From Thermoanaerobaculum sp. (lineage in GTDB: Bacteria; Acidobacteriota; Thermoanaerobaculia; Multivoradales; UBA5704), in the NCBI GenBank assembly GCA_021154885.1, contig JAJKHS010000032.1:46833-110832 (forward strand): a DNA stretch of 64,000 nucleotides. The letters are read 5' to 3'. This document shows, in pieces, positions 38,850 through 58,427 of the stretch (positions are counted from its first letter, which is position 1; each line of letters begins with the position of its first letter). The notes beneath the pieces are model-generated. The model saw only the letters and a program-made list of their open reading frames with translations. It was not told the origin of the DNA and did not search any database. The translations under genes and the position numbers were made by a program.

Positions 38850-38979
38850 GGGGGGCGCGCTTCCCCATAAGCTCTGGCTTTGCTTCAGCGCCAGGCCAGC
38901 AGCCTCCTCCAGGCCTGATTCGACAAGGCGCAGACCCTGGGCGGCGACTGCAAACTCCTCCGCAGTCCCTGCTGCCGCG

Positions 38980-39190
38980 GCAGCAGTCATCGCTGTCCCG
39001 GCAGCAGTCGTCGCTGGCTCGGCAGCAGTCGTCGCTGGCTCGGCAGCAATCATCGCTGCCGTGGCAGCAGCCATTGCTTGCTTGGCAAGCAGTCATTGCT
39101 GCCAAGGCAGCAGTCATCGCTGGCTCGGCAGCAGTCATCGCTGGCTTGGCAGCAGTCGTCGCTGGCTTGGCAGCAGTCGTCGCTGGCTTG
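38980..39190. repeat. Tandem array of ten 21-bp units (consensus GCAGCAGTCGTCGCTGGCTYG), one unit being 22 bp
   Basis: Units begin at 38980, 39001, 39022, 39043, 39064, 39085 (22 bp), 39107, 39128, 39149 and 39170. The central units are diverged. Confidence 0.9.
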
Positions 39191-39240
39191 GCAAGGCCCA
39201 GACCAGACCCGACCGCAGGCATCGAGGTCAAAGTTTGCGT

Positions 39241-39627
39241 CTATGGCGCGCTTTCCCTCACGATCCCAGCCCGCGCCTGAGCGCCTGGAGCCCCCGCAGC
39301 ACGACGAAGCTCTCCCGCAGGAACCCCAGCAGCAGCATGGCCCCGAAGAGCGCCACCCCCTCCCGGCCGCGCATCACCACCGCGTGAGCCAAGAAGCCCA
39401 GGAAGAAGACGAGCGTCAGCAGCTCGATGGCCAAGTGCACGGTCTAGAGCTCCCGCGCCGGCCGGCGGAAGAAGGCGACGGCTAAAGAGCGCGGCCAGGG
39501 GGGTCTTGGCCTCCCAGAGAAGGGTGCGGTAGACACCGGCCTCGATGAGGAGGCCGAGAGCCAGCATCAGGGCCAGGAGGAGGAGGGGGAGGAGGCGGAA
39601 GGCGCGGGAGGATCGCAGGGTGGGCAT
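39241..39627 (-). CDS. Possible small membrane protein; only the first ~50 codons look coding (possible frameshift or short gene)
   Basis: ATG 39627 lies 9 nt after the CHAT gene stop. The product starts MPTLRSSRAFRLLPLLLLALMLALGLLIEAGVY (TM). Third-position GC drops after about codon 50 and the signal moves to another frame. Confidence 0.3.
   Translation of the reverse strand: MPTLRSSRAFRLLPLLLLALMLALGLLIEAGVYRTLLWEAKTPLAALFSRRLLPPAGAGALDRALGHRAADARLLPGLLGSRGGDARPGGGGALRGHAAAGVPAGELRRAAGAPGAQARAGIVRESAP
39258..39440 (-). CDS. Possible small membrane protein (60 aa)
   Basis: GTG start. Two hydrophobic segments (LAIELLTLVFFLGFLAHAVV and ALFGAMLLLGFL). High third-position GC in this frame. 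Confidence 0.35.
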   Translation of the reverse strand: MHLAIELLTLVFFLGFLAHAVVMRGREGVALFGAMLLLGFLRESFVVLRGLQALRRGLGS

Positions 39628-39636
39628 CGCAGCGAC

Positions 39637-41793
39637 TCAGTCTACCCGGGTGGCCAGCGGATCGCCGTAGAAACAGTAGGCCGCGTAGGTGTCCTCGCCG
39701 CCATCGGGGGCGTAGGACTTGGCCCGCAGATCGCGCAGGATGGCGGCGAAAGGCGTCGCCGGTTCGGCCTTGACCCGGCGATAGAACTCCACGGCGATCT
39801 CGTGGGCGATCGTGTCCTTGACGCTCCAGAGCGGGGCGATGACGGCGCTGGCACCGAGGGCCATGAGTTCCTCGGCAAAGCCGCCGGTACCCACCAGCGC
39901 GGGCTCCTGCCGGCCGACTTCGCAGGCGTTGAGGAAGACCAGGGGCCTGGAGGTCGCGAAGCCCTTCTCGATGCCCGGCATGGCGGCGAGCGCGCTGGAG
40001 TAGAGCTCCTGCTTCTGATCCATGACGAGCACCTGGCTGCCGCCGTCGCCGCTCTTGCCGTGGCAGACGAAGTGGAGGAGAGCCCGGCCTTGCTGCTGGA
40101 AAGCTTGGTCCAGTGCCCTGGCGGAGGCAGGATCGATTCGCATTCCATGGAAACCCTCCACGACCACCTTGGCCTCATTCTCGGCGGCTCCGAGCCTGGA
40201 GTCACGCGGAGCTACTACATAGGCGTCGCGCAGCGGGATTTTTTGTGGCGGATGGATGTCGTCGTCGGAGGTCCAGCGGCTCAGCAGGAACTCGATGCCC
40301 AGCGGCTCGCGTTTCTGGAGCTTGCCGCCAGGAGGCCGTCGGTTTGGCACCATCAGCTCCCAGGGAATATTGGGCTCTTGGGTGATAATGGAGATCGTCT
40401 TCGGCGGCTTGCCGGAATCGATCAACTCCCAGAAAACTTTCTGGAAGAGGGTTGGCGCGGCCTTGAAAAGTTTCAGCCCGGCGCCACGCAGGGCCGTCGT
40501 GCGGTCCCAGTCACTCGCTCCCTTGGCGGTGAACTGGACCATCTGCTGGCGTACCAGGTCCCGGGCCAGGCTGCTCAGCCGCCACTTTTCGATGACGCCG
40601 TCCTGGTAGGAAGGGAGTAGGGACGTCTGGATCTTGCATTGGAAATTGCGTTCGTCGGTGGCCGATGCGACGATCTGGACATTGAGGTCTGCCGGCTGGG
40701 CTGAAGCCTCGACTCGCACGATCGGGCGGCTTGCCGGCGTCTCTTCCTGAGCTTCCGTGGTCAGAGGAACGGCGCGGCTCACCTTGCCGCAGGCTCGTCC
40801 GTTGTAGGCGAAGAGGGCCGAGAATGTCGCGGTCCCGGTTCCTCCGCCCTTCTTGCGGACGACCGTGAACACGGCCGATTCCGAGCGCTCCTGGTCGCGA
40901 AGGATGGTCAGCTCCTGGATAACGGGTCCCTCAACTTCAAAGGGTTTCTCGACCACCAGCCAGACGTTCAAGTCGAACTGCGTCTGATCAGGAGAGACCT
41001 CCAGGACCACGTCCTCTCCCTCTTCCCCTCTGCGCAGCGCCCCGATGTCGGTGTATACAGAGACCTGGATCTGAGCGTCTGCCGCGGGCGGCGGGGGATC
41101 GAGATCCATGTGTGGCGTGCGCCGGAGGATCTCAGAGGCCATATGATCGGAGGTCGCCCGAGTTGGTTCCAAATGGGGCTCAGGATCCGGAGGGGCCAGG
41201 CTCATCGCATTGCGCGAGTCAGAAGTCCTGACGACGTTCTCGGCAGCCAAGCCCTTGGTTCCCTGTACCACGTCGAACTCCACGCGGTCACCCTCGGCGA
41301 GCGACTTGAAGCCGTTGCCCCGAATGGCCGAATGATGAACAAAGCAGTCCTTCTGCCCGTCCTCCGGGGTGATGAAACCGAAACCTTTACTGTCGTTGAA
41401 CCACTTCACTCTTCCGCGGCGCGGATGGGCCTCGTGGTCGCTGAGCGGTTCCTCGTAGGGAGGCCGTGCGCTGTCTATTCGCGCACGGTCGCCGTCAGGA
41501 CTGGGAAAATGTTCCCTCGGCTCAATTGGATGCTCTCTCTTGTCTGTTCGCTGGCGACCCGGGTCGGGAGTGGGCATTGAGTTGTCGACCGCCTTGGCGC
41601 TGTCAGTCTCCCTTCTGACCTTCGGAATCAGCTCCATCAGCTTCAGGAGATACCGTTCGGCGTTGGCACGGCGCCGGCCATTGAGAGCCACAACCTGCAG
41701 GAATAGGGTGCGGGCCGTGGCGAAGTCGCCGGTCTCGTAGGCGCGCTGGGCGGCCTGGAAGAGGCTCTCCTCGCGATCAGGCGATCCGCTCAC
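39637..41793 (-). CDS. CHAT-domain (caspase-like) protease fused to a cold-shock domain
   Basis: The cold-shock domain (CSD) covers residues ~127-189 ([31 protein letters not shown]..., nt 41227-41415). The CHAT dyad is His578 in [10 protein letters not shown] (nt 40060-40062) and Cys624 in VFLNACEVG (nt 39922-39924). IPWELM motif present. GTG start with an AAGGAG SD, overlapping the upstream gene by 17 nt. Confidence 0.85.
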
Positions 41794-43204
41794 GCTGATG
41801 CTCCTTGCCGTTCTCGTCGATGTAGCGCACGGCGATCTCGGGGCCGTCGAAGTCCAGCACCGCGAAGCCGAAGAGGGCCCAGCGCTCCAGACCCTTGTCG
41901 ATGAAGTCGCGGTACTCGTAGAAGGCCGGTGCCGGGTAGGGGTCGTTCTCGGCGTGGGTCATGTAGACGGGCACGCCGCCATGGCCGAGGCAGCGGGCGT
42001 CGATTCCCTGGTAGGGATCGTAGAAGACGCAGCGGTGCTCGTGGCCCCAGAGCCAGCTCTTCACCCGCCCGGTGGCGAGGACGGGCTTGATCTTTTCGCT
42101 CAGGACGTCGTTCCCGCTCTCGTAGGCGCTGAAGATCTGGTGGTGGGAGAGAAGCATCCCCTTGCCGGAGGAGTCGGTGAGCGTCCGCTGCGCCCATTGG
42201 GCCTGATGGCCTTGCAAGCCGCCGTCCTCCCAAGCGGTGTCCAGCGCGAGCAGCGTCCAGTGATCGTTGCGCAGGCTGAAGTAGCTCTTCCCCTCCTGGC
42301 GCTTGAACCGCGGGTCCTGGAGGACGTAGCCGTAGAAGGCATGGCCGCCGGAGTACATGTCGTGATTGCCGTTGAGGTTCCAGGAGGTGATCCGGTCCTC
42401 CTCGCCCAAGCGGACAGGCCAGTATTGGAGGAAGCGATTACGATACTCATACTCCCAGCCTGAGTAGTAGACGTCGCCGAGGTGAACGACGTGCTGCTCG
42501 CGCTGGTGTGCAATCCCCTCGTCCAGCACCTTGCGCATCTCGTTCGCGACTTTCTGAGCGCGGGGAAGGCCCGAGCCCCAGTCGCCCACCACCACGAGAC
42601 GCGCGCGGTCGCCGATCTGCACCGCCGTGGCGGCCTCGTCCGGGAAGGGAAAGCGGCCCCGGAGCTTGCGCACCCCCTCGGCGACGAGCGAGCTGACCCA
42701 GCGGATATCGAAGATCGAGAACTTGTCGAAGATCCGCCGGCCGTCGAGGTCACGCGATGGCGGAGGGGCGTCCGCCAGCGAGACGTCCGTCACCGCGACA
42801 TCGTCCTGGAAGGAGCGGCGGTCGTCGGGAAGGTCGGACTGCGCCAGCTTTTCCTTCTCCGTCAGGACGTGCTCCAGGGCGGACTGGAGGTTGCTGAGGA
42901 CGGCGTCGCGGCTGAAGAAAGAGAAGTCGTCGATCGGCGCCGGCTCCTCGCCCCGGCGTTCGGGCGGCGGCGGCTCGAACCCCTTCTGGCCGCTGGAGGC
43001 CAGCGTCTCCTGCTGGAGGGCCTCGTCGATCGCCGCCAGCGCCAGGGCGGCGTCCTGCGGCTCGATCTCAGGTCCCTCGGTCGCCGTCGCCATAGTGCGG
43101 CGTTCGGGCGTAGCGGCCTCCTGCAGCTCCCGCCGCACCTCTTCCAACTGATCGAGCACGAACTGGCGGTTCAGCACCTGGGCAATCAAGGGTTCTCCTC
43201 GCAC
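41777..43204 (-). CDS. Cytoplasmic metallophosphoesterase with purple-acid-phosphatase-type motif set and ~200-aa acidic N-terminal extension
   Basis: Motifs GDWG, GDVYY, GNHD, LLSHH and GHEH in canonical order. No signal peptide. The start is uncertain (GTG 43204 or ATG 43093). Confidence 0.8.
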
Positions 43205-47505: not shown

Positions 47506-48558
47506 TCAGCGGGAGGAGCTGGCCGTCGGCGTGGACTGTCCCGGCACGGCGTGAGCTCCCGCGGGCGTCGGAGATCCGTCCTGGTTCAACAGGAACCAGC
47601 CGGTGGCCAGCACGAAGACCATCAGCAGGAGGGTGGCCGCCAGCAGCAGCAGGGCACGACGATGATCCCTCTCGCCGGCGTCGGACTGAGGCCGGGCCGG
47701 CGCTGCGGCGACCGGCCGGGGGGCGCCGGGGAAGACCTCCAACCGTCCTTCTTCCGCGGGGAGCGGCGGGCTCGTCCGCGGCCGGACCCCGGAGCTGCCA
47801 TCCGTGCGGACCGCCTCGCGCAGGGCCTCCGCCATCTCCGCGGCGCTGGCGTAACGGGCGCTGGGCTCCTGGCTGGTGGCGCGGGCCAGGACCCGGAAGA
47901 GCGGATCCCGCACCCCCAGGCCTCCCTGGCTGCGCAGCGAGCCGGCGAAGGTCAGGCGCCGCAGCAGCGAGCCCACGGCATAGAGGTCGCTCTGCACCGT
48001 GTAGAGCTCCCCCGCGAGCTGCTCGGGGGGCAGGGTGAGCAGCGGATCGAAGACGAGCTGCGTCAAGCCGAAGCCGGTGAGCACCAGGTGACCCTCCGGC
48101 GCGAGAACGACCTCGTCCTCGGCGATGTGCCGGTGCAGGATCCCCTCGGCATGGGCCTCGGCCAGGATCTCCAGGAGCTGGCCCCCCCAGTCGATCAGCG
48201 TCGCCCGGTCCGGCCGCTCGCCCTGGGCGAGCAGGTCGTGCAAGGAACGCCCCTCGGTCTCGGCGAAAGCCACCAGCAGCGAGCCGTCGTACTCGGCGAC
48301 CTCCAGCAGGGCGGGCAGACCGCGATGGTAGATCCGTCCCAGGGCCTCGGTCTCGGCGAGCAGGATTTCCCACGAGGCAGCCTCCTGCCAGGAGCCTGGC
48401 CGGGAGGCCGGAATCACCTTCAGGATCGACGTCCGGTCGCTGCGGGTGTCCGCCGCGAGATAGGCCATCCCGAACGGAGCCGGCCCCAGATCCTCCAGGA
48501 CCTGATAGGGACCGATCTCCCGCACTCCTCGGATGACTGGTGTAGATAGCATGCCCAT
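47506..48558 (-). CDS. Membrane-anchored degenerate Ser/Thr kinase-like protein (probable pseudokinase)
   Basis: Kinase fold pattern (YQVLEDLGPAPFGMAYLA, ILKVI) with HRHIAEDE in place of HRDxxxxN and GFG in place of DFG. C-terminal TM LLLLAATLLLMVFVLATGWFLL. ATG 48558 has a GGAG SD. Confidence 0.6.
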   Translation of the reverse strand: MGMLSTPVIRGVREIGPYQVLEDLGPAPFGMAYLAADTRSDRTSILKVIPASRPGSWQEAASWEILLAETEALGRIYHRGLPALLEVAEYDGSLLVAFAETEGRSLHDLLAQGERPDRATLIDWGGQLLEILAEAHAEGILHRHIAEDEVVLAPEGHLVLTGFGLTQLVFDPLLTLPPEQLAGELYTVQSDLYAVGSLLRRLTFAGSLRSQGGLGVRDPLFRVLARATSQEPSARYASAAEMAEALREAVRTDGSSGVRPRTSPPLPAEEGRLEVFPGAPRPVAAAPARPQSDAGERDHRRALLLLAATLLLMVFVLATGWFLLNQDGSPTPAGAHAVPGQSTPTASSSR

Positions 48559-48814
48559 GGCTCGCTCCATGCGGCTTCGGACCGACCGCCAAACTTCTGG
48601 GGGACCCGAAGCTGCAAGCTCCATGCAAGGCCGGCGGCGGCGGGACGGCTCCGATCGCGCAGACGATCTCGCGAGCCATCGAGCCGATGTCTTTCGGCTA
48701 CTACTGAAAGTGCGGGGGGTGGGAGGAAGAGGGACAAGTGGCCGGAGCGTCGTTCGCGATCCGCTTCCCGATCCGCAGGGTGGCGTCGATCGGGAGGTCG
48801 CCGTGCCGGCGGAG

Positions 48815-49175: not shown

Positions 49176-49382
49176 GGATTGTTTTGAACGTTTCGAGCAT
49201 CGCCAAGATTTGCCTGCAATGTTCCGGGAGCTCAGCCCCGAAGGGGATTGTTTTTGAAACGCTTCGAGCATCGCCGAGATTCGCCTGCAATGTCCGGGAG
49301 CCAGGCCCGAAGGGGCGAAAGCATGTAGCCAGGGGCGTCAGCCCCAGGTAGGTCGCCGAAAAGAAACCTTAGCCCCGAAGGG
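49176..49382. repeat. Three tandem 69-bp units on the CRISPR flank (two similar, the third diverged), each ending in GCCCCGAAGG or GGCCCGAAGG
   Basis: Units are 49176-49244, 49245-49313 and 49314-49382. Units 1 and 2 align along their full length with few differences. Confidence 0.7.
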
Positions 49383-49430: not shown

Positions 49431-49441
49431 GTGGGTGATGT

Positions 49442-50014
49442 GTCCCAATCCCACCGTACTGCTCAGGGCAATTCCGAGACAGGGAGCTCGTCCAGCTCTT
49501 TGGCCTGCGAACCCCAGTCGCAATCCCACCGTACTGCTCAGGGCAATTCCGAGCGCAACGCCGGCATGCATGTCGTCCAGAGCACCGACCCGAGTCGCAA
49601 TCCCACCGTACTGCTCAGGGCAATTCCGAGTTGTTTCCAATGAACTGACAGAGTTGATGGATGCGGTAGTCGCAATCCCACCGTACTGCTCAGGGCAATT
49701 CCGAGCAACGACAGGAGCAACCACGTGAAAATGCACAAGCCGAATCTGTCGCAATCCCACCGTACTGCTCAGGGCAATTCCGAGTCAAAGCGATTTCAAC
49801 AGCACTGTCGGAGATCTCGCCGACTTGTCGCAATCCCACCGTACTGCTCAGGGCAATTCCGAGGTTCACCAAGGCCGGCCAGACCGTCAAGCTGTTTGTC
49901 GAGTCGCAATCCCACCGTACTGCTCAGGGCAATTCCGAGGAACTGTACGGATGCCATTCTTTCGCCTGTCCCGGGAAGTCGCAATCCCACCGTACTGCTC
50001 AGGGCAATTCCGAG
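49442..50014 (-). CRISPR. CRISPR array: 8 x 37-bp repeats, 7 spacers (38-42 bp); no cas genes in this window
   Basis: The plus-strand repeat is GTCGCAATCCCACCGTACTGCTCAGGGCAATTCCGAG, at 49442 (one mismatch), 49517, 49594, 49669, 49748, 49827, 49903 and 49978. Spacers are unique and of lower GC. Minus-strand orientation is inferred from three things: the degenerate repeat at the left end, the lower-GC non-coding flank on the right, and the minus-strand repeat ending in ATTGCGAC (similar to the ATTGAAAC handle). Confidence 0.93.
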
Positions 50015-50350: not shown

Positions 50351-50455
50351 GTGAGCTTCGAAGGGCAGACCGGCCCACTTGAGCACGGCCTTTCGAGGCC
50401 CTCGTTGCGATATTCTTTGCCTTCAGTAATCCCTCAATCAAGGGGCACCATCCCC

Positions 50456-51721
50456 ATGAACCTCCTCACCCTCCTCCTTCTCCTCCCCACCCCCGACCTC
50501 CTCGTCCCCCCCTCCTGGATCGCGGAGCATCGCGCCATCCCGGTGGACGTGCGGCCGGCGGCGGCGTTCGCGGCGGGACATCTGCCGGGGGCGGTGCGGG
50601 TGGCGGTGGCGCCGGAGTGCGTGGCGGCGGGGGTGGGGTGTGTGCAGAGGGAGCTTGGGAAGGCTGGGCTTGGAGGGGAGGAGGCGGTGGTGGTGGTCGG
50701 GGAGGACGGCGCGGCGGTGGGGGAGGCGTTCTGGCTGCTGGAGTGGGCGGGATTGAAACAGGTGAAGGTGCTCGACGGTGTGGTCGATGCGAAGGGACCC
50801 GAGGAGGGACTGGGGAGGCGGGAGGCGCGAGCGTTTACGGCGCGGGCGTCGGAATCGGCCGCGGCGGACGTGGCCTGGGTCCGGGCCCGAGTGGGAACGA
50901 AGGGGGTGGAGTTTCTGGACCTGAGGGACGAGGGGATCTGGATGGAGAAGGACTACGAGGCGCCGGCGCGGTTCGCGGCCGGGCATCTCCCCCACGCGTT
51001 GCCGTTTGATTTCCGGCGGTGGGTTCCCCGGGACGGCCGGTGGCCGGAGGCTGGCAGGGTGTGGGAGACGCTCAAGCGGCTGGGACCGCGCGAGGTGACG
51101 AAGGTCGATGCCAAGGCTGAATTCGTGCTCTACGGGGACGGGCCGGCGGATCTGCAGCCGGGGCTCGGGTATCTGCTGCTGCGGCGCGCGGGAATCCCCG
51201 TGCGGGTCTTCCCCGGCGGTTTCCAGGAATGGTCCAAGGACCCGGCGAACCCGGTGGTGCGCATCGTGGGCGCGCCGGAGGTCGACCGGCTCTTGGAGGT
51301 GGAGAACCCCGGGCTGAAGGGGGACGAGGTGGCGCGCTCGGTGGTGGTGCTCGACCTGCGGGAGGCGCGGGACTTCAAGCTCGGGCACATCCCGGGGGCG
51401 TACAACTTTCCGGCCTATACGGAGGGGAGGTCGATCGAGAAGGTAATGGAGGAGAGATGGCCGCAGGCCAGGGCCACGCGGGCGCCGGTGGTCCTCTATT
51501 GCTATGGCCGGCCGTGCATCCGCAGCCGCGACGCCGCGGCCCGGCTGGCGCGGGCGGGGTTCACGAATCTGCTGTGGCTGCGGGAGGGGATGGAGGCCTG
51601 GAGGGAGGCGGGGTTGCCGGTGGCGGGGGGACCCCGGAACGCCCCCGCCCCAGACCCTCATCACCCCGGCCCTCTTCTCCCAGCCTCCCCCCCGTCCGCC
51701 GGGAGAAGAGGGAGGGGTTAG
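50456..51721 (+). CDS. Multi-rhodanese-domain sulfurtransferase-like protein
   Basis: Three rhodanese-like segments (AAGHLPGAVRV, FAAGHLPHALPFD, FKLGHIPGAYNFP ... LYCYGRPCIRS...GFTNLLWLREGMEAWREAGLPV). The last ~25 codons run into the repeat element. Confidence 0.75.
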   Translation: MNLLTLLLLLPTPDLLVPPSWIAEHRAIPVDVRPAAAFAAGHLPGAVRVAVAPECVAAGVGCVQRELGKAGLGGEEAVVVVGEDGAAVGEAFWLLEWAGLKQVKVLDGVVDAKGPEEGLGRREARAFTARASESAAADVAWVRARVGTKGVEFLDLRDEGIWMEKDYEAPARFAAGHLPHALPFDFRRWVPRDGRWPEAGRVWETLKRLGPREVTKVDAKAEFVLYGDGPADLQPGLGYLLLRRAGIPVRVFPGGFQEWSKDPANPVVRIVGAPEVDRLLEVENPGLKGDEVARSVVVLDLREARDFKLGHIPGAYNFPAYTEGRSIEKVMEERWPQARATRAPVVLYCYGRPCIRSRDAAARLARAGFTNLLWLREGMEAWREAGLPVAGGPRNAPAPDPHHPGPLLPASPPSAGRRGRG

Positions 51722-56654: not shown

Positions 56655-58427
56655 TTACTTTTTCGTCTTCGTATTCTTCTTTGTTTTCCTAGATCTAGAT
56701 CGAGAATCAGGCTTGGACTTAAATCTCAATATGGATTTGGACTTAGATCTAGATCTGCCCCTAGATTCGGACTCAGATTCGGACTCAGATCCGGAATCAG
56801 ATAATTTTCTTTTGTTCCTCTTTTTGGCCGAAGACCGGTTTTTGGCTTTGCCGACCGGTTTGCCCTTACCCTTGGACGCTGGCTGCGATTTATCGGCAGC
56901 GGCCGCAGCGGTTAAAATTTTTGCCAGCTCATCGAGGCCTACACCGGGGAATCTCTTCTTCACCAGTGACACGACATCGGCTTCCGATGGGTTTTGAGTG
57001 GGCGTGCGCTGTTTGGCTAAAAATTCCCGCTTGGGACCTTGCGCGAGGGATATCTCTTCACCAGTCTTGGCAGCGCCTTTCACCGTGAAGCTGAATGGCT
57101 TTGCGACGGTGAGGGGCTCGTTTACCAGGTCCTCTTCTTCGACGAAGTTCTCACCGAGCGTTCGTATGCCCGCCGGCTTCTTGGCCTCCGGGAACTTGCC
57201 TTTCGACAGGACCTTTGCCGTCATCTCCCAGGTACTGGGTATCCGCCTTGGAATCTCGACTTCTTTGTCAAGAACGTCCTTTTCTAGGCCTGCAGGATCG
57301 ACAACTTTTTTGTCGATTAGGTCCTCTATGTTCACCTTGTATGAGTCCTTGGGGTAGCCGACCTTGACTATGACCTCGATCTTCGCGTCGGCCTCCGCCA
57401 ATTTCTTCACCTCCTCCTCTGCGACACTGGAGTAGGCAGGAGTATTCAAGGCCTCGATCTGAGGCGCGAGATTCCATAGCTCGAAGGAGTTGTCTTTTCC
57501 CCCGACCAGTTGATCGGCCACCAAGTGACCGGCGTTGTACTCTCCCACCGGATCGTAACCTTCCAGGATCACATGCTCCGCCCGCGCCATGGAGGTCACC
57601 AGGGACAGATTGGCACTCTTTTTCCGTTCATCGTCCCGGAGGGTGTCCTTGCTCACCTCAGCTTTCACCGTGTGCGGCCGGGCCAAAGGGCCGAGCTGTT
57701 GGGTGCCAGGCAATTCGAGATCTTTTAGTTTCAGTTTCGTTGCCCCGGCTATGGCTCCGGCTGGCGTCTTCTCGTTCGTGGACCCCTGGTCCTCGAGGCT
57801 CATCTGCATGAGGTTCGAGGGCGGTGAATACGTGTTCTGCTCGCCGGAGTGCGGCCACAGGGGAGGGAGCGCGATTTCGCTCCGCTGCCGGCTGCCGCGG
57901 TCCGCTCGGTCGGCGGCGCTTCCGATTTCGGCCGCTTCTCGCTCCAAGCCGCGATCGTCATTCAGGGCCACGTTTTCTATCTGCCCGGTCGGCTTCACCC
58001 TGCCCTGCCGCTGCTGCACCGCGTGCCAGGCCTCGTGGGGCAACTGCTCGTCCTCTCCCGGCGCGAGGTGGATGGCATTTCCCCGCAGGAACGCCAAGGC
58101 GCGGTACTGCGCCGGCTCCGGCGAGTTGTGATAGACCCGCAGTCCCCCCAGATTCACCCCGGAGGCCCATTCGAGATGGGCGCGCAGGGGACCCGGCAGA
58201 CCGCCGGCCGGTTCGCCGCCAGCGGGGTAAACCGGGGGCAGGGGGCTCGGCGCCTGCTCCAGGGCTCGCTTCATCTGGGCGGTCGAGCATGTCGGGTCCC
58301 GGCGCGCGGGATCGCGACTCGGCCCATTGCGGCCCTCGTGCGGCGAGACGCCAAATTGCGCCGTCGCCGACGAGCTCTCCCGTACCGCCAAGCTCTGCCG
58401 TCTTGAAATCGGACTATAGATTCGCAC
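56655..58427 (-). CDS. Polymorphic-toxin-like protein: N-terminal DUF4157 domain + EssD/YeeF-type (Endonuclease_NS_2-like) nuclease + basic low-complexity tail
   Basis: The DUF4157 pattern is GVNLGGLRVYHNS...ALAFLRGNAIHLAPGE...LPHEAWHAVQQ. The nuclease motif is NAGHLVADQLVGGKDNSFELWNLAPQIEALN. The tail is KGKGKPVGKAKNRSSAKKRNKRKLSDSGSESESESESRGRSRSKSK. GTG start with a GGAGG SD. The 3' half has low GC. Confidence 0.7.
   Translation of the reverse strand: MRIYSPISRRQSLAVRESSSATAQFGVSPHEGRNGPSRDPARRDPTCSTAQMKRALEQAPSPLPPVYPAGGEPAGGLPGPLRAHLEWASGVNLGGLRVYHNSPEPAQYRALAFLRGNAIHLAPGEDEQLPHEAWHAVQQRQGRVKPTGQIENVALNDDRGLEREAAEIGSAADRADRGSRQRSEIALPPLWPHSGEQNTYSPPSNLMQMSLEDQGSTNEKTPAGAIAGATKLKLKDLELPGTQQLGPLARPHTVKAEVSKDTLRDDERKKSANLSLVTSMARAEHVILEGYDPVGEYNAGHLVADQLVGGKDNSFELWNLAPQIEALNTPAYSSVAEEEVKKLAEADAKIEVIVKVGYPKDSYKVNIEDLIDKKVVDPAGLEKDVLDKEVEIPRRIPSTWEMTAKVLSKGKFPEAKKPAGIRTLGENFVEEEDLVNEPLTVAKPFSFTVKGAAKTGEEISLAQGPKREFLAKQRTPTQNPSEADVVSLVKKRFPGVGLDELAKILTAAAAADKSQPASKGKGKPVGKAKNRSSAKKRNKRKLSDSGSESESESESRGRSRSKSKSILRFKSKPDSRSRSRKTKKNTKTKK

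Follow-up and report, generated by a model that had tools for sequence, protein, structure and literature searches.

The metallophosphoesterase and CHAT protease genes

The window analysed here is a 64,000-nucleotide stretch of DNA from Thermoanaerobaculum sp. (GenBank assembly GCA_021154885.1, contig JAJKHS010000032.1, positions 46,833 to 110,832 of the forward strand), and the coordinates given below are those of the window. Its minus strand between 39.2 and 43.2 kb is occupied by two large and well-supported genes, the first encoding a metallophosphoesterase (MPE) and the second a CHAT protease that carries a cold-shock domain (CSD). It is close to certain that the two proteins are partners. 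The genes and the parts of their products are as follows.

41777..43189, minus strand: MPE gene, 470 residues; likely start TTG at 43189, the open reading frame (ORF) reaching to a GTG at 43204
42605..43189, minus strand: N-terminal extension of the MPE, residues 1-195; acidic, mostly helical, conserved and predicted to be ordered
41780..42604, minus strand: catalytic domain of the MPE, residues 196-470, with the motifs GDWG, GDVYY, GNHD, LSHH and GHEH
39637..41793, minus strand: CSD-CHAT protease gene, 718 residues; GTG start with AAGGAG upstream
41587..41781, minus strand: three-helix N-terminal module of the protease, residues 5-69; AlphaFold2 (AF2) confidence (pLDDT) ~96
41227..41424, minus strand: CSD, residues 124-189, inserted in a variable linker
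40417..41133, minus strand: N-terminal part of the CHAT core, residues 221-459; beta-sandwich, small beta unit and helical bundle
39640..40398, minus strand: caspase-fold CHAT domain, residues 466-718; H578 at 40060-40062 and C624 at 39922-39924

The TTG at 43189 is the likely start of the MPE in that it is preceded, at five bases, by a GAGGAG Shine-Dalgarno sequence, and in that the protein then begins MIAQVLN, like its homologues. The MPE stop codon (41777-41779) lies 3' of the CHAT GTG start at 41793, so that the two genes overlap by 17 nucleotides, and 9 nucleotides separate the CHAT stop from a downstream ATG at 39627. An original prediction made on this DNA had described the same overlap, a 718-residue CHAT protease with a cold-shock domain, a 9-nucleotide gap after its stop and a 60-residue ORF (at 39258-39440); all of these are found, Pfam matches to CHAT and CSD included. 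The GC content of the locus is also lower than that of its surroundings, as had been stated (0.62-0.64, compared with 0.68-0.77 in the flanks). The chief cause of the dip is the CHAT gene, with a GC content at third codon positions (GC3) of 0.77; the values for the MPE and for neighbouring genes are 0.89 and 0.86-0.94, respectively. A consensus scan of 38.7-43.7 kb for promoters and terminators yielded nothing useful.

The MPE matches Pfam Metallophos at residues 202-392 (E 8e-10; numbered in the ORF 41777-43204). Purple acid phosphatases (PAPs) are recognized by five motifs, i.e. GDXG, GDXXY, GNH(D/E), VXXH and GHXH, which supply seven metal ligands; all five are present, in agreement with the motif set first reported. 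The original prediction was to stand or fall in part on the conservation of these ligands in homologues, and in an alignment of 113 sequences they are invariant or at least 90% conserved, with D203, D239, Y242 (the Tyr ligand of the PAPs), N275, H276, H383 and H385 invariant and H350 present in at least 90%. A search of PDB sequences with the MPE returned human PAP (1war, E 1e-8), and the top eight Foldseek matches of its predicted model are mammalian PAPs, including tartrate-resistant acid phosphatase (TRAP), with E-values down to 3e-15 and target template-modelling (TM) scores of 0.66-0.71, pointing to a PAP-like fold. More than 3,200 homologues align at ~99% coverage. No signal peptide is seen, and the protein is cytoplasmic.

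The N-terminal extension was originally described as acidic and probably disordered over ~200 residues. It is acidic (net charge -15). However, the AF2 model of the MPE, made with 113 homologues, has a mean pLDDT of 92 and a predicted TM score of 0.92, with helices in the extension at residues 3-32, 44-63, 96-112 and 162-177 for which pLDDT is mostly above 85; moreover, the extension aligns across the same homologues nearly without gaps and has invariant positions. The predicted order and the conserved, gap-poor alignment therefore do not support a disordered extension. Only four loops within it are of low confidence (residues 31-40, 71-80, 121-130 and 151-160).

The AF2 model of the protease has a mean pLDDT of 81, and the Pfam CHAT match spans residues 532-687 (E 1e-15). 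The three-helix module is shared by 41 of the 195 members of the CHAT family compared here; disordered linkers are predicted on either side of the CSD, at residues 70-122 and 192-217. The CHAT core begins at LRRTPHMD in all homologues, and its N-terminal part, including a beta-sandwich at residues 221-343, is conserved throughout the family and modelled with pLDDT 85-97, though residues 221-459 have no Pfam match. H578 (in HFVCHG) and C624 (in LNACEVG) are invariant in 53 homologues, the dyad being a second feature on whose conservation the original prediction depended; they follow the predicted strands 572-581 and 618-624, the arrangement expected of a CHAT/clan CD dyad. Foldseek matches to the core include Csx29/TPR-CHAT (3e-11), the anti-sigma factor DdvA, separase and SAVED-CHAT.

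For the CSD, Pfam matches residues 126-189 (E 8e-29) over positions 2-65 of the 66 in the model, PDB sequence matches are to CspE/CspC (E 6e-25), and Foldseek aligns it to CspE and CspC chains at 66-68% identity with TM scores of 0.8-0.84. Of its two RNP motifs, RNP1 is preserved as KGFGFI and RNP2 has the sequence CFVHH, as expected for an OB-fold of the CspA family. Its distribution is narrow: among the 195 CHAT-core family members, a CSD is present in two, the window protein (P0001) and P0002, which is 69% identical to it and likewise follows an MPE gene with a 17-nucleotide overlap (locus L008). In the related locus L092, with 84% DNA identity to the window, ~33 residues join the helical module of the CHAT protein to its core and there is no CSD; the other family members have low-complexity linkers without a Pfam domain. 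Judged by sequence comparison, the CSD is a lineage-specific insertion. Since it occurs in only two of 195 members, it is therefore no general trigger of the CHAT family, and the earlier claim that it is the nucleic-acid sensor of the system can apply at most to a sublineage. In this lineage it may tether or gate the protease via single-stranded RNA or DNA. Independently of this, a CSD and an MPE are linked a second time in P0067, a protein of 399 residues in which a CSD is fused directly to a metallophosphoesterase (Pfam CSD, Metallophos and Metallophos_2).

Conservation of the pair and its Arg-Arg motifs

The arrangement of an MPE gene followed by a CHAT gene on the same strand is found in the Acidobacteriota, Actinomycetota and Pseudomonadota, and probably in the Planctomycetota. 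When the contigs carrying homologues were looked up, it was present in all cases except the two closest CHAT relatives; the loci concerned are from Thermoanaerobaculia (L005, L008 and L011), Solirubrobacteraceae (L006), Edaphobacter aggregans (L009) and Bradyrhizobium sp. (L010). The 17-nucleotide overlap recurs in L005, L008 and L011, and at the others the genes overlap by 1 or 4 nucleotides or are separated by 36. The Acidobacteriota and Bradyrhizobium proteins are ~50% identical.

In a survey using one genome per species, at least 551 genomes contained a relative of the MPE, and the best 80 were examined. In 29 of these a CHAT core of the window type lies immediately 3' of the MPE gene, and in ~6 more a CHAT protein is encoded in another orientation or has another architecture; seven contigs end too early, and 38 loci are without CHAT. 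The MPEs without CHAT are paralogues at a greater distance (37-41% identity), for the most part from Solirubrobacterales, and have metabolic neighbours, e.g. acyl-CoA dehydrogenase, GMC oxidoreductase and methyltransferases. The two genes thus remain neighbours in other genomes, both in the look-ups across phyla and in the 29 of 80 species loci, which is the third point on which the original prediction rested. Some full-length MPEs, at L049, L050, L070 and L040, lack the first two of the Arg-Arg sites described below, and the CHAT protein encoded after them is built differently; its Pfam CHAT match is, in L049 and L050, at the N terminus of a protein of 700-770 residues. An ORF of 1,517-1,631 residues then follows on the same strand in L049:8325-15397, L050:8065-15112 and L070:8406-15405, and is cut by the end of the locus in L049 and L070.

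Natural fusions of MPE and CHAT occur in at least three cluster representatives (P0044, P0266 and P0287). P0044, with 1,093 residues and present on 13 contigs, corresponds at residues 1-472 to the MPE including the whole extension (57% identity) and, after a low-complexity linker, at residues 568-1090 to the CHAT core (44% identity). Two other apparent fusions, in L037 and L054, were rejected after a frame-aware check had identified them as alternative-frame artefacts. Pairwise distances between MPEs and between CHAT proteins at 32 loci are correlated with r = 0.91, a value reached in none of 2000 permutations but uncorrected for shared ancestry, so that co-transfer and a shared species history are not separated by it. 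Because of the contig look-ups, the species survey, the fusions and the co-variation taken together, the comparative evidence indicates that the MPE-CHAT pair is a conserved unit.

A profile made from the CHAT alignment finds 2,089 cluster representatives (50% identity) at E<=1e-30. Longer members of the family carry N-terminal fusions, which may be a Metallophos domain, a second CHAT, a Ser/Thr kinase, DUF7379 with or without TCAD7 (the Pfam ternary-complex-associated domain) or HEAT repeats; fusions of the latter four types are represented by P0212, P0239, P0242, P0284 and P0297. The DUF7379 region has a GFSRGG motif that recalls the GXSXG nucleophile elbow, and a PDB sequence search with this region of P0284 returned compositional noise only. 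These architectures suggest that the CHAT core defines a family of proteases with a variable partner, and a protease core that stays the same while its partner is exchanged is typical of conflict systems.

The feature of the MPE extension that covaries with the presence of a CHAT neighbour is a set of three Arg-Arg motifs.

42950..42961, minus strand: site 1, E77-R78-R79-G80; candidate CHAT cleavage or docking motif
42812..42826, minus strand: site 2, D122-D123-R124-R125-S126; family consensus DDRRG
42728..42742, minus strand: site 3, G150-R151-R152-I153-F154; family consensus G-R-R-(L/V/I)-F

Each lies within one of the low-confidence loops of the extension, the blocks 71-80, 121-130 and 151-160 having pLDDT values of 72, 56 and 73. 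Across the 113 MPE sequences, R78 is conserved in all 113, R79 in 106 and G80 in 81; at site 2, R124 is present in 109 and R125 in 100, while position 126 is Gly in 63, Ser in 23 and Ala in 11; and at site 3 both R151 and R152 are present in all 113. The more distant CHAT-less paralogues have kept the N-terminal extension, with the Arg-Arg loops deleted or changed. Two or more of the motifs are found in 25 MPEs of the 80-genome set, every one of which is next to a CHAT gene. At site 3, 29 MPEs with the Arg-Arg pair have a CHAT neighbour and one has none, whereas among those lacking it six have a CHAT neighbour and 38 do not (Fisher p ~1e-13, uncorrected for phylogeny). The fusion protein P0044 retains all three motifs. 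It can be proposed that the motifs are sites at which CHAT cleaves the MPE extension, and they are treated here as candidates for that role. Their conservation in flexible loops and their near-confinement to CHAT-linked MPEs lend indirect support to the original idea of such cleavage.

Proposed mechanism, genomic context and alternatives

The best-supported proposal, held to be about as likely as not, is that the CHAT protease cleaves the extension of its partner and thereby activates a latent PAP-like phosphoesterase, probably in the context of conflict or abortive infection. In this two-gene protease-effector module, CHAT would be co-translated with the MPE and act together with it physically. 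The MPE would be made in a latent form, with the 195-residue extension packing on the catalytic domain. Once activated, CHAT, through His578 and Cys624, would cut at one or more of the sites ERR|G (residues 78-80), DDRR|G/S (124-126) and GRR (151-152), so freeing the phosphoesterase, for which nucleotides, nucleic-acid ends and phosphoproteins are candidate substrates. In the window genome and one relative the CspE-like CSD would add a nucleic-acid input to CHAT. The biological role is most probably a conflict or abortive-infection response. We infer not only that cleavage takes place, but also that the protease acts on the MPE and that the cut activates and does not inactivate it; what triggers CHAT and the role in defence are likewise inferred. 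A more specific, self-contained pathway from sensor to protease to effector, in which phage- or stress-derived single-stranded RNA or DNA bound by the CSD licenses CHAT, the Arg-Arg loops are cut and the MPE then arrests the infected cell, is considered rather unlikely.

The chromosomal slot occupied by the pair bears on this proposal. Its flanks are syntenic in Thermoanaerobaculia, with large CarboxypepD_reg-type genes upstream and a DNA_alkylation gene downstream, and its contents differ: L005 has MPE and CHAT, the window and L008 have MPE and CSD-CHAT, L092 has CHAT alone, and the contig of P0004 has a PIN toxin-antitoxin-like pair together with CHAT but no MPE. The original prediction placed the operon in an accessory stretch; the variation of the slot among close relatives agrees with that, although the flanking genes are syntenic chromosomal ones. 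That the two closest relatives have lost the MPE but kept CHAT agrees with a role of the MPE as a dispensable effector, not an essential inhibitor.

This last point is relevant to a different assignment of roles, i.e. that the MPE regulates CHAT, either by presenting its Arg-Arg loops as securin-like pseudosubstrates or by hydrolysing a nucleotide or phospho-signal, with CHAT as the executioner acting on cell or phage proteins. The CHAT core is structurally like separase, an Arg-directed protease which is itself controlled by a pseudosubstrate partner. The co-occurrence of Arg-Arg motifs and CHAT would suit docking as well as cleavage, the natural fusions imply a stable complex, and some MPE homologues carry a JGI annotation as CpdA-type cAMP phosphodiesterases. 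Caspase-like proteases without effectors can also protect alone (PMC12642450). However, a required inhibitor is hard to square with close relatives that keep CHAT without an MPE; the invariance of all the PAP metal ligands implies that catalysis matters beyond docking; and elsewhere the partner position is taken by a kinase or DUF7379, which looks like effector swapping. Regulation of CHAT by the MPE is judged doubtful.

Several observations weigh against activation by cleavage in a defence setting. Another role for the invariant arginines could be to bind phosphates of the substrate or to provide a CHAT-docking surface, and neither the association of site 3 with CHAT nor the distance correlation takes account of phylogeny, as given above. 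Most CHAT family members have no recognizable sensor, the N-terminal regions of the longer homologues yielding no Pfam sensor domain. The position of the Thermoanaerobaculia pair between syntenic chromosomal genes also fits a housekeeping role. As to the proximity to known defence genes, for which a check had been suggested, neither a known defence system nor any other partner gene recurs among the four nearest neighbours at 35 loci, analysed with Pfam and PADLOC; the 135 neighbours belong to 129 Pfam families, of which the commonest are additional CHAT (5) or Peptidase_C14 (5) genes and response regulators (5). The pair is present on one of 2.9 million viral contigs.

Alternatively, the pair may be a non-immune proteolysis/phosphatase unit of stress physiology, e.g. 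a phosphatase whose maturation or turnover depends on its own protease, with the CSD as the link to cold or RNA stress in this lineage. The shared flanking genes in several Thermoanaerobaculia, the mostly metabolic or regulatory neighbours with no recurrent defence genes, the near-absence from viral contigs, the 66-68% identity of the CSD to housekeeping CspE/CspC and the host-typical GC3 of the MPE (0.89) all favour it. By contrast, the scatter of the pair over at least three phyla at ~50% identity suggests horizontal spread, and the presence or absence of genes in the slot varies among relatives with 84% DNA identity, one of which has the PIN toxin-antitoxin-like pair. Moreover, some copies have further CHAT or caspase genes, genes for nSTAND NTPases or an SLFN/AlbA_2 gene beside them, and the CHAT core is found fused to TCAD7. 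A non-immune role is regarded as fairly improbable.

With respect to individual neighbourhoods, the E. aggregans pair (L009:11384-16831) is followed by three genes on the same strand which overlap or nearly abut, two of them encoding ATPase_2 and nSTAND1/nSTAND2 NTPase domains, a possible sensor-linked module. Other copies have as neighbours a further CHAT gene, an SLFN/AlbA_2 gene and a gene for a C13 peptidase.

The third and fourth genes of the operon as first described encode small transmembrane products. They and the repeat that follows are as listed.

39444..39627, minus strand: ORF-A, read from a coding-frame shift as a frameshifted remnant of a gene for a 48-58-residue transmembrane protein; outside the module
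39258..39440, minus strand: ORF-B, read from homologue alignment as a truncated 5' fragment (~50 of ~200 codons) of a gene for a multi-transmembrane protein; outside the module
38940..39235, no strand assigned: 21-bp tandem repeat array (Tandem Repeats Finder: period 21, 10.6 copies; higher-order 106/127-bp periodicity)

As it stands ORF-A reads 128 residues, but its GC3 coding signal leaves frame A near 39505 and continues in frame B; it is 88% identical to P0197 and has intact homologues at L094:6821-6997 and L093:6851-6997. The 60 residues of ORF-B include the first ~50 of a longer protein, with 61-75% identity to the N termini of P0198-P0209 (190-205 residues). Between ORF-B and the DNA_alkylation gene, the array stands in the place of the missing 3' part of ORF-B. 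Its candidate frames, with GC3 values of 0.64-0.72, do not look like coding sequence, and L092 has no counterpart of it. A conserved but unannotated cassette of the two small genes, its multi-transmembrane protein without a Pfam family, is present in genomes of Thermoanaerobaculia and in others; the copy in the window is decayed. It is intact at L093:6851-7573 and L094:6821-7594, where a gene for a 48-58-residue transmembrane protein is followed, after 3 nucleotides, by a gene for a 190-205-residue multi-transmembrane protein. The 3-nucleotide spacing is the same as that between ORF-A and ORF-B, and there is no MPE or CHAT gene near either intact cassette.

By comparison with these homologues, ORF-A and ORF-B are the decayed remnant of an unrelated membrane-gene cassette. 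The original prediction in full, i.e. a three- or four-gene operon in which the transmembrane peptides are CHAT substrates or gasdermin-like membrane effectors, is barely credible. It had in its favour that the ORFs begin 9 nucleotides downstream on the same strand and have coding-like GC3 values of 0.82 and 0.95. However, ORF-A is frameshifted and ORF-B is cut after ~50 of ~200 residues; the intact cassettes stand apart from MPE and CHAT; and Pfam, NCBIfam and PADLOC give no match for either product, so that the adjacent gasdermin gene expected of a gasdermin-activating protease is not found. Counterparts are absent from L008, with its 69%-identical CSD-CHAT protein, from L092, which lacks the whole of window 38857-39650, and from L005, a syntenic locus in which the DNA_alkylation gene directly adjoins the CHAT stop; a tblastn search with the small ORFs against all related MPE-CHAT loci gave nothing at E<0.05. 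The claim that they belong to the operon is thus not upheld.

The remnants, the adjacent tandem repeat, the loss of the MPE in close relatives and the low GC3 of CHAT (0.77 against 0.86-0.94) might also be taken to indicate that the locus as a whole is decaying and no longer functional. This is very unlikely: both large ORFs are intact and of full length compared with their homologues, their catalytic and other invariant residues are kept, and both the start-stop overlap and the Shine-Dalgarno sequences are preserved.

Other elements of the window were recorded in their own right. The CRISPR array that had been reported in this stretch is represented by a CRISPR-like array at 49436-50014, 6 kb away, with eight copies of a ~37-nucleotide repeat (GTCGCAATCCCACCGTACTGCTCAGGGCAATTCCGAG) at a spacing of 75-79 nucleotides. 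The ORFs scanned on its two sides are kinase-like (47506-48624) and a rhodanese (50351-51721), with LigA beyond, and no cas genes are seen beside it; none of ten flanking ORFs scanned has a Pfam match to a Cas family, and the related loci are likewise without cas genes. Directly upstream of the array there is a 46-nucleotide direct repeat pair (49182-49227 and 49253-49298), beside a match to the Rfam Acido-Lenti-1 small RNA at 49303-49348 on the minus strand (37.8 bits, just over the gathering score). The toxin gene of the original prediction is probably that at 56655-58427 on the minus strand, which encodes 590 residues with a weak eCIS_core match and a DNA/RNA non-specific endonuclease domain and has a low GC3 of 0.70.

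Comparison with known systems

A full-text literature search found no paper describing a CHAT-metallophosphoesterase pair, and the statement that no named system has this gene set stands in so far as none was matched. PADLOC (v2), which was to confirm this, gave no system-level match and none for the MPE, although at the level of domains the CHAT protein matches CSD_V and SAVED_CHAT; an NCBIfam scan of the four ORFs similarly gave domain-level matches to CSD and CHAT only, the MPE and the small ORFs remaining without a match. To speak of an undescribed operon goes too far, however, since the general class of protease-associated MPEs has already been noted computationally (PMC12642450), an MPE-like enzyme being one of ten known or predicted protease-associated effector families and itself uncharacterized (PMC12642450; PMC12799240). 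The new elements are the CSD insertion and the anatomy of the Arg-Arg loops.

Protease-activated latent effectors are an emerging common design in bacterial immunity, with parallels in the caspase/zymogen cascades of animals. Within that design MPEs have been tallied as a class without ever being studied; the class can now be approached experimentally through a defined family, three candidate motifs, known catalytic residues and fusions which argue for a complex. The rare CSD insertion provides a simple way into how such proteases are triggered. Were the CSD-gated pathway correct, this would be the first characterized protease-activated metallophosphoesterase, and the first CSD directly controlling a caspase-like protease without CRISPR. 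Were the role non-immune, the pair would still define a widespread, unstudied protease-phosphatase regulatory unit of soil bacteria.

In Craspase, where Cas7-11 with Csx29 cleaves Csx30, the protease provides the best structural match to the CHAT core (7zoq and 7y9x, E ~3e-11) and has an N-terminal helical module; its nucleic-acid-gated proteolysis corresponds to the idea originally proposed for the CSD. It differs in that there are no cas7-11, csx30 or csx31 genes at the present locus, and in that the candidate substrate here is an enzyme and not a sigma-factor regulator. SAVED-CHAT/PCaspase of type III-B CRISPR or CBASS systems is alike in its CHAT fold (8tl0), in the PADLOC SAVED_CHAT match (1e-7) and in the logic of a protease activating an enzyme. 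By contrast, the window protein has no SAVED domain by Pfam, no cyclase or Cas10 is encoded nearby, and the PADLOC match covers residues 552-674 only. The likeness to separase and securin lies in the caspase fold (5fby, 5mz6 and 9hm7); separase is eukaryotic and the homology is confined to the protease domain, making this an analogy.

Defence proteins with a CSD, including the retron Se72 effector, PADLOC CSD_V and CoCoNuT (PMC11090510), match the window CSD with E-values of 1e-11 (CSD_V) and 2.6e-11 (NCBIfam retron_eff_Se72). These scores are far weaker than those for the housekeeping proteins CspE/CspC (5e-31) and lie under the curated cut-off, and there is no adjacent reverse transcriptase or McrBC gene.

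The catalytic domain of the MPE is matched best, in sequence as well as in structure, by TRAP/ACP5 (2bq8, 1war and 1ute), which shares the five motifs including the Tyr ligand in GDxxY. TRAP is described as being produced in a low-activity form that is activated by cysteine-protease cleavage (PMC7081696), which would be a notable parallel for the regulation of a PAP-type enzyme. The two proteins differ in that identity is 19-21%, in that TRAP lacks the 195-residue extension, and in that its inhibitory element is an internal loop.

Finally, a caspase-like protease has been reported to activate a neighbouring alpha/beta-hydrolase zymogen by cutting it at two conserved R|G sites, giving toxic fragments (PMC12642450, a 2025 preprint). 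Most MPE-CHAT copies differ from that module in having no STAND, Hachiman or ABC sensor, and indeed no recognizable sensor of infection, though nSTAND genes follow the pair in E. aggregans and the window copy has its CSD; the MPE class of that study may be the present PAP-like family. In other regards the two are alike: the protease is adjacent or fused to a hydrolase, the two proteins co-vary and the partner is modular, and the Arg-Gly/Ser loop motifs of the MPE extension are comparable with the two R|G sites of LcHydrolase.

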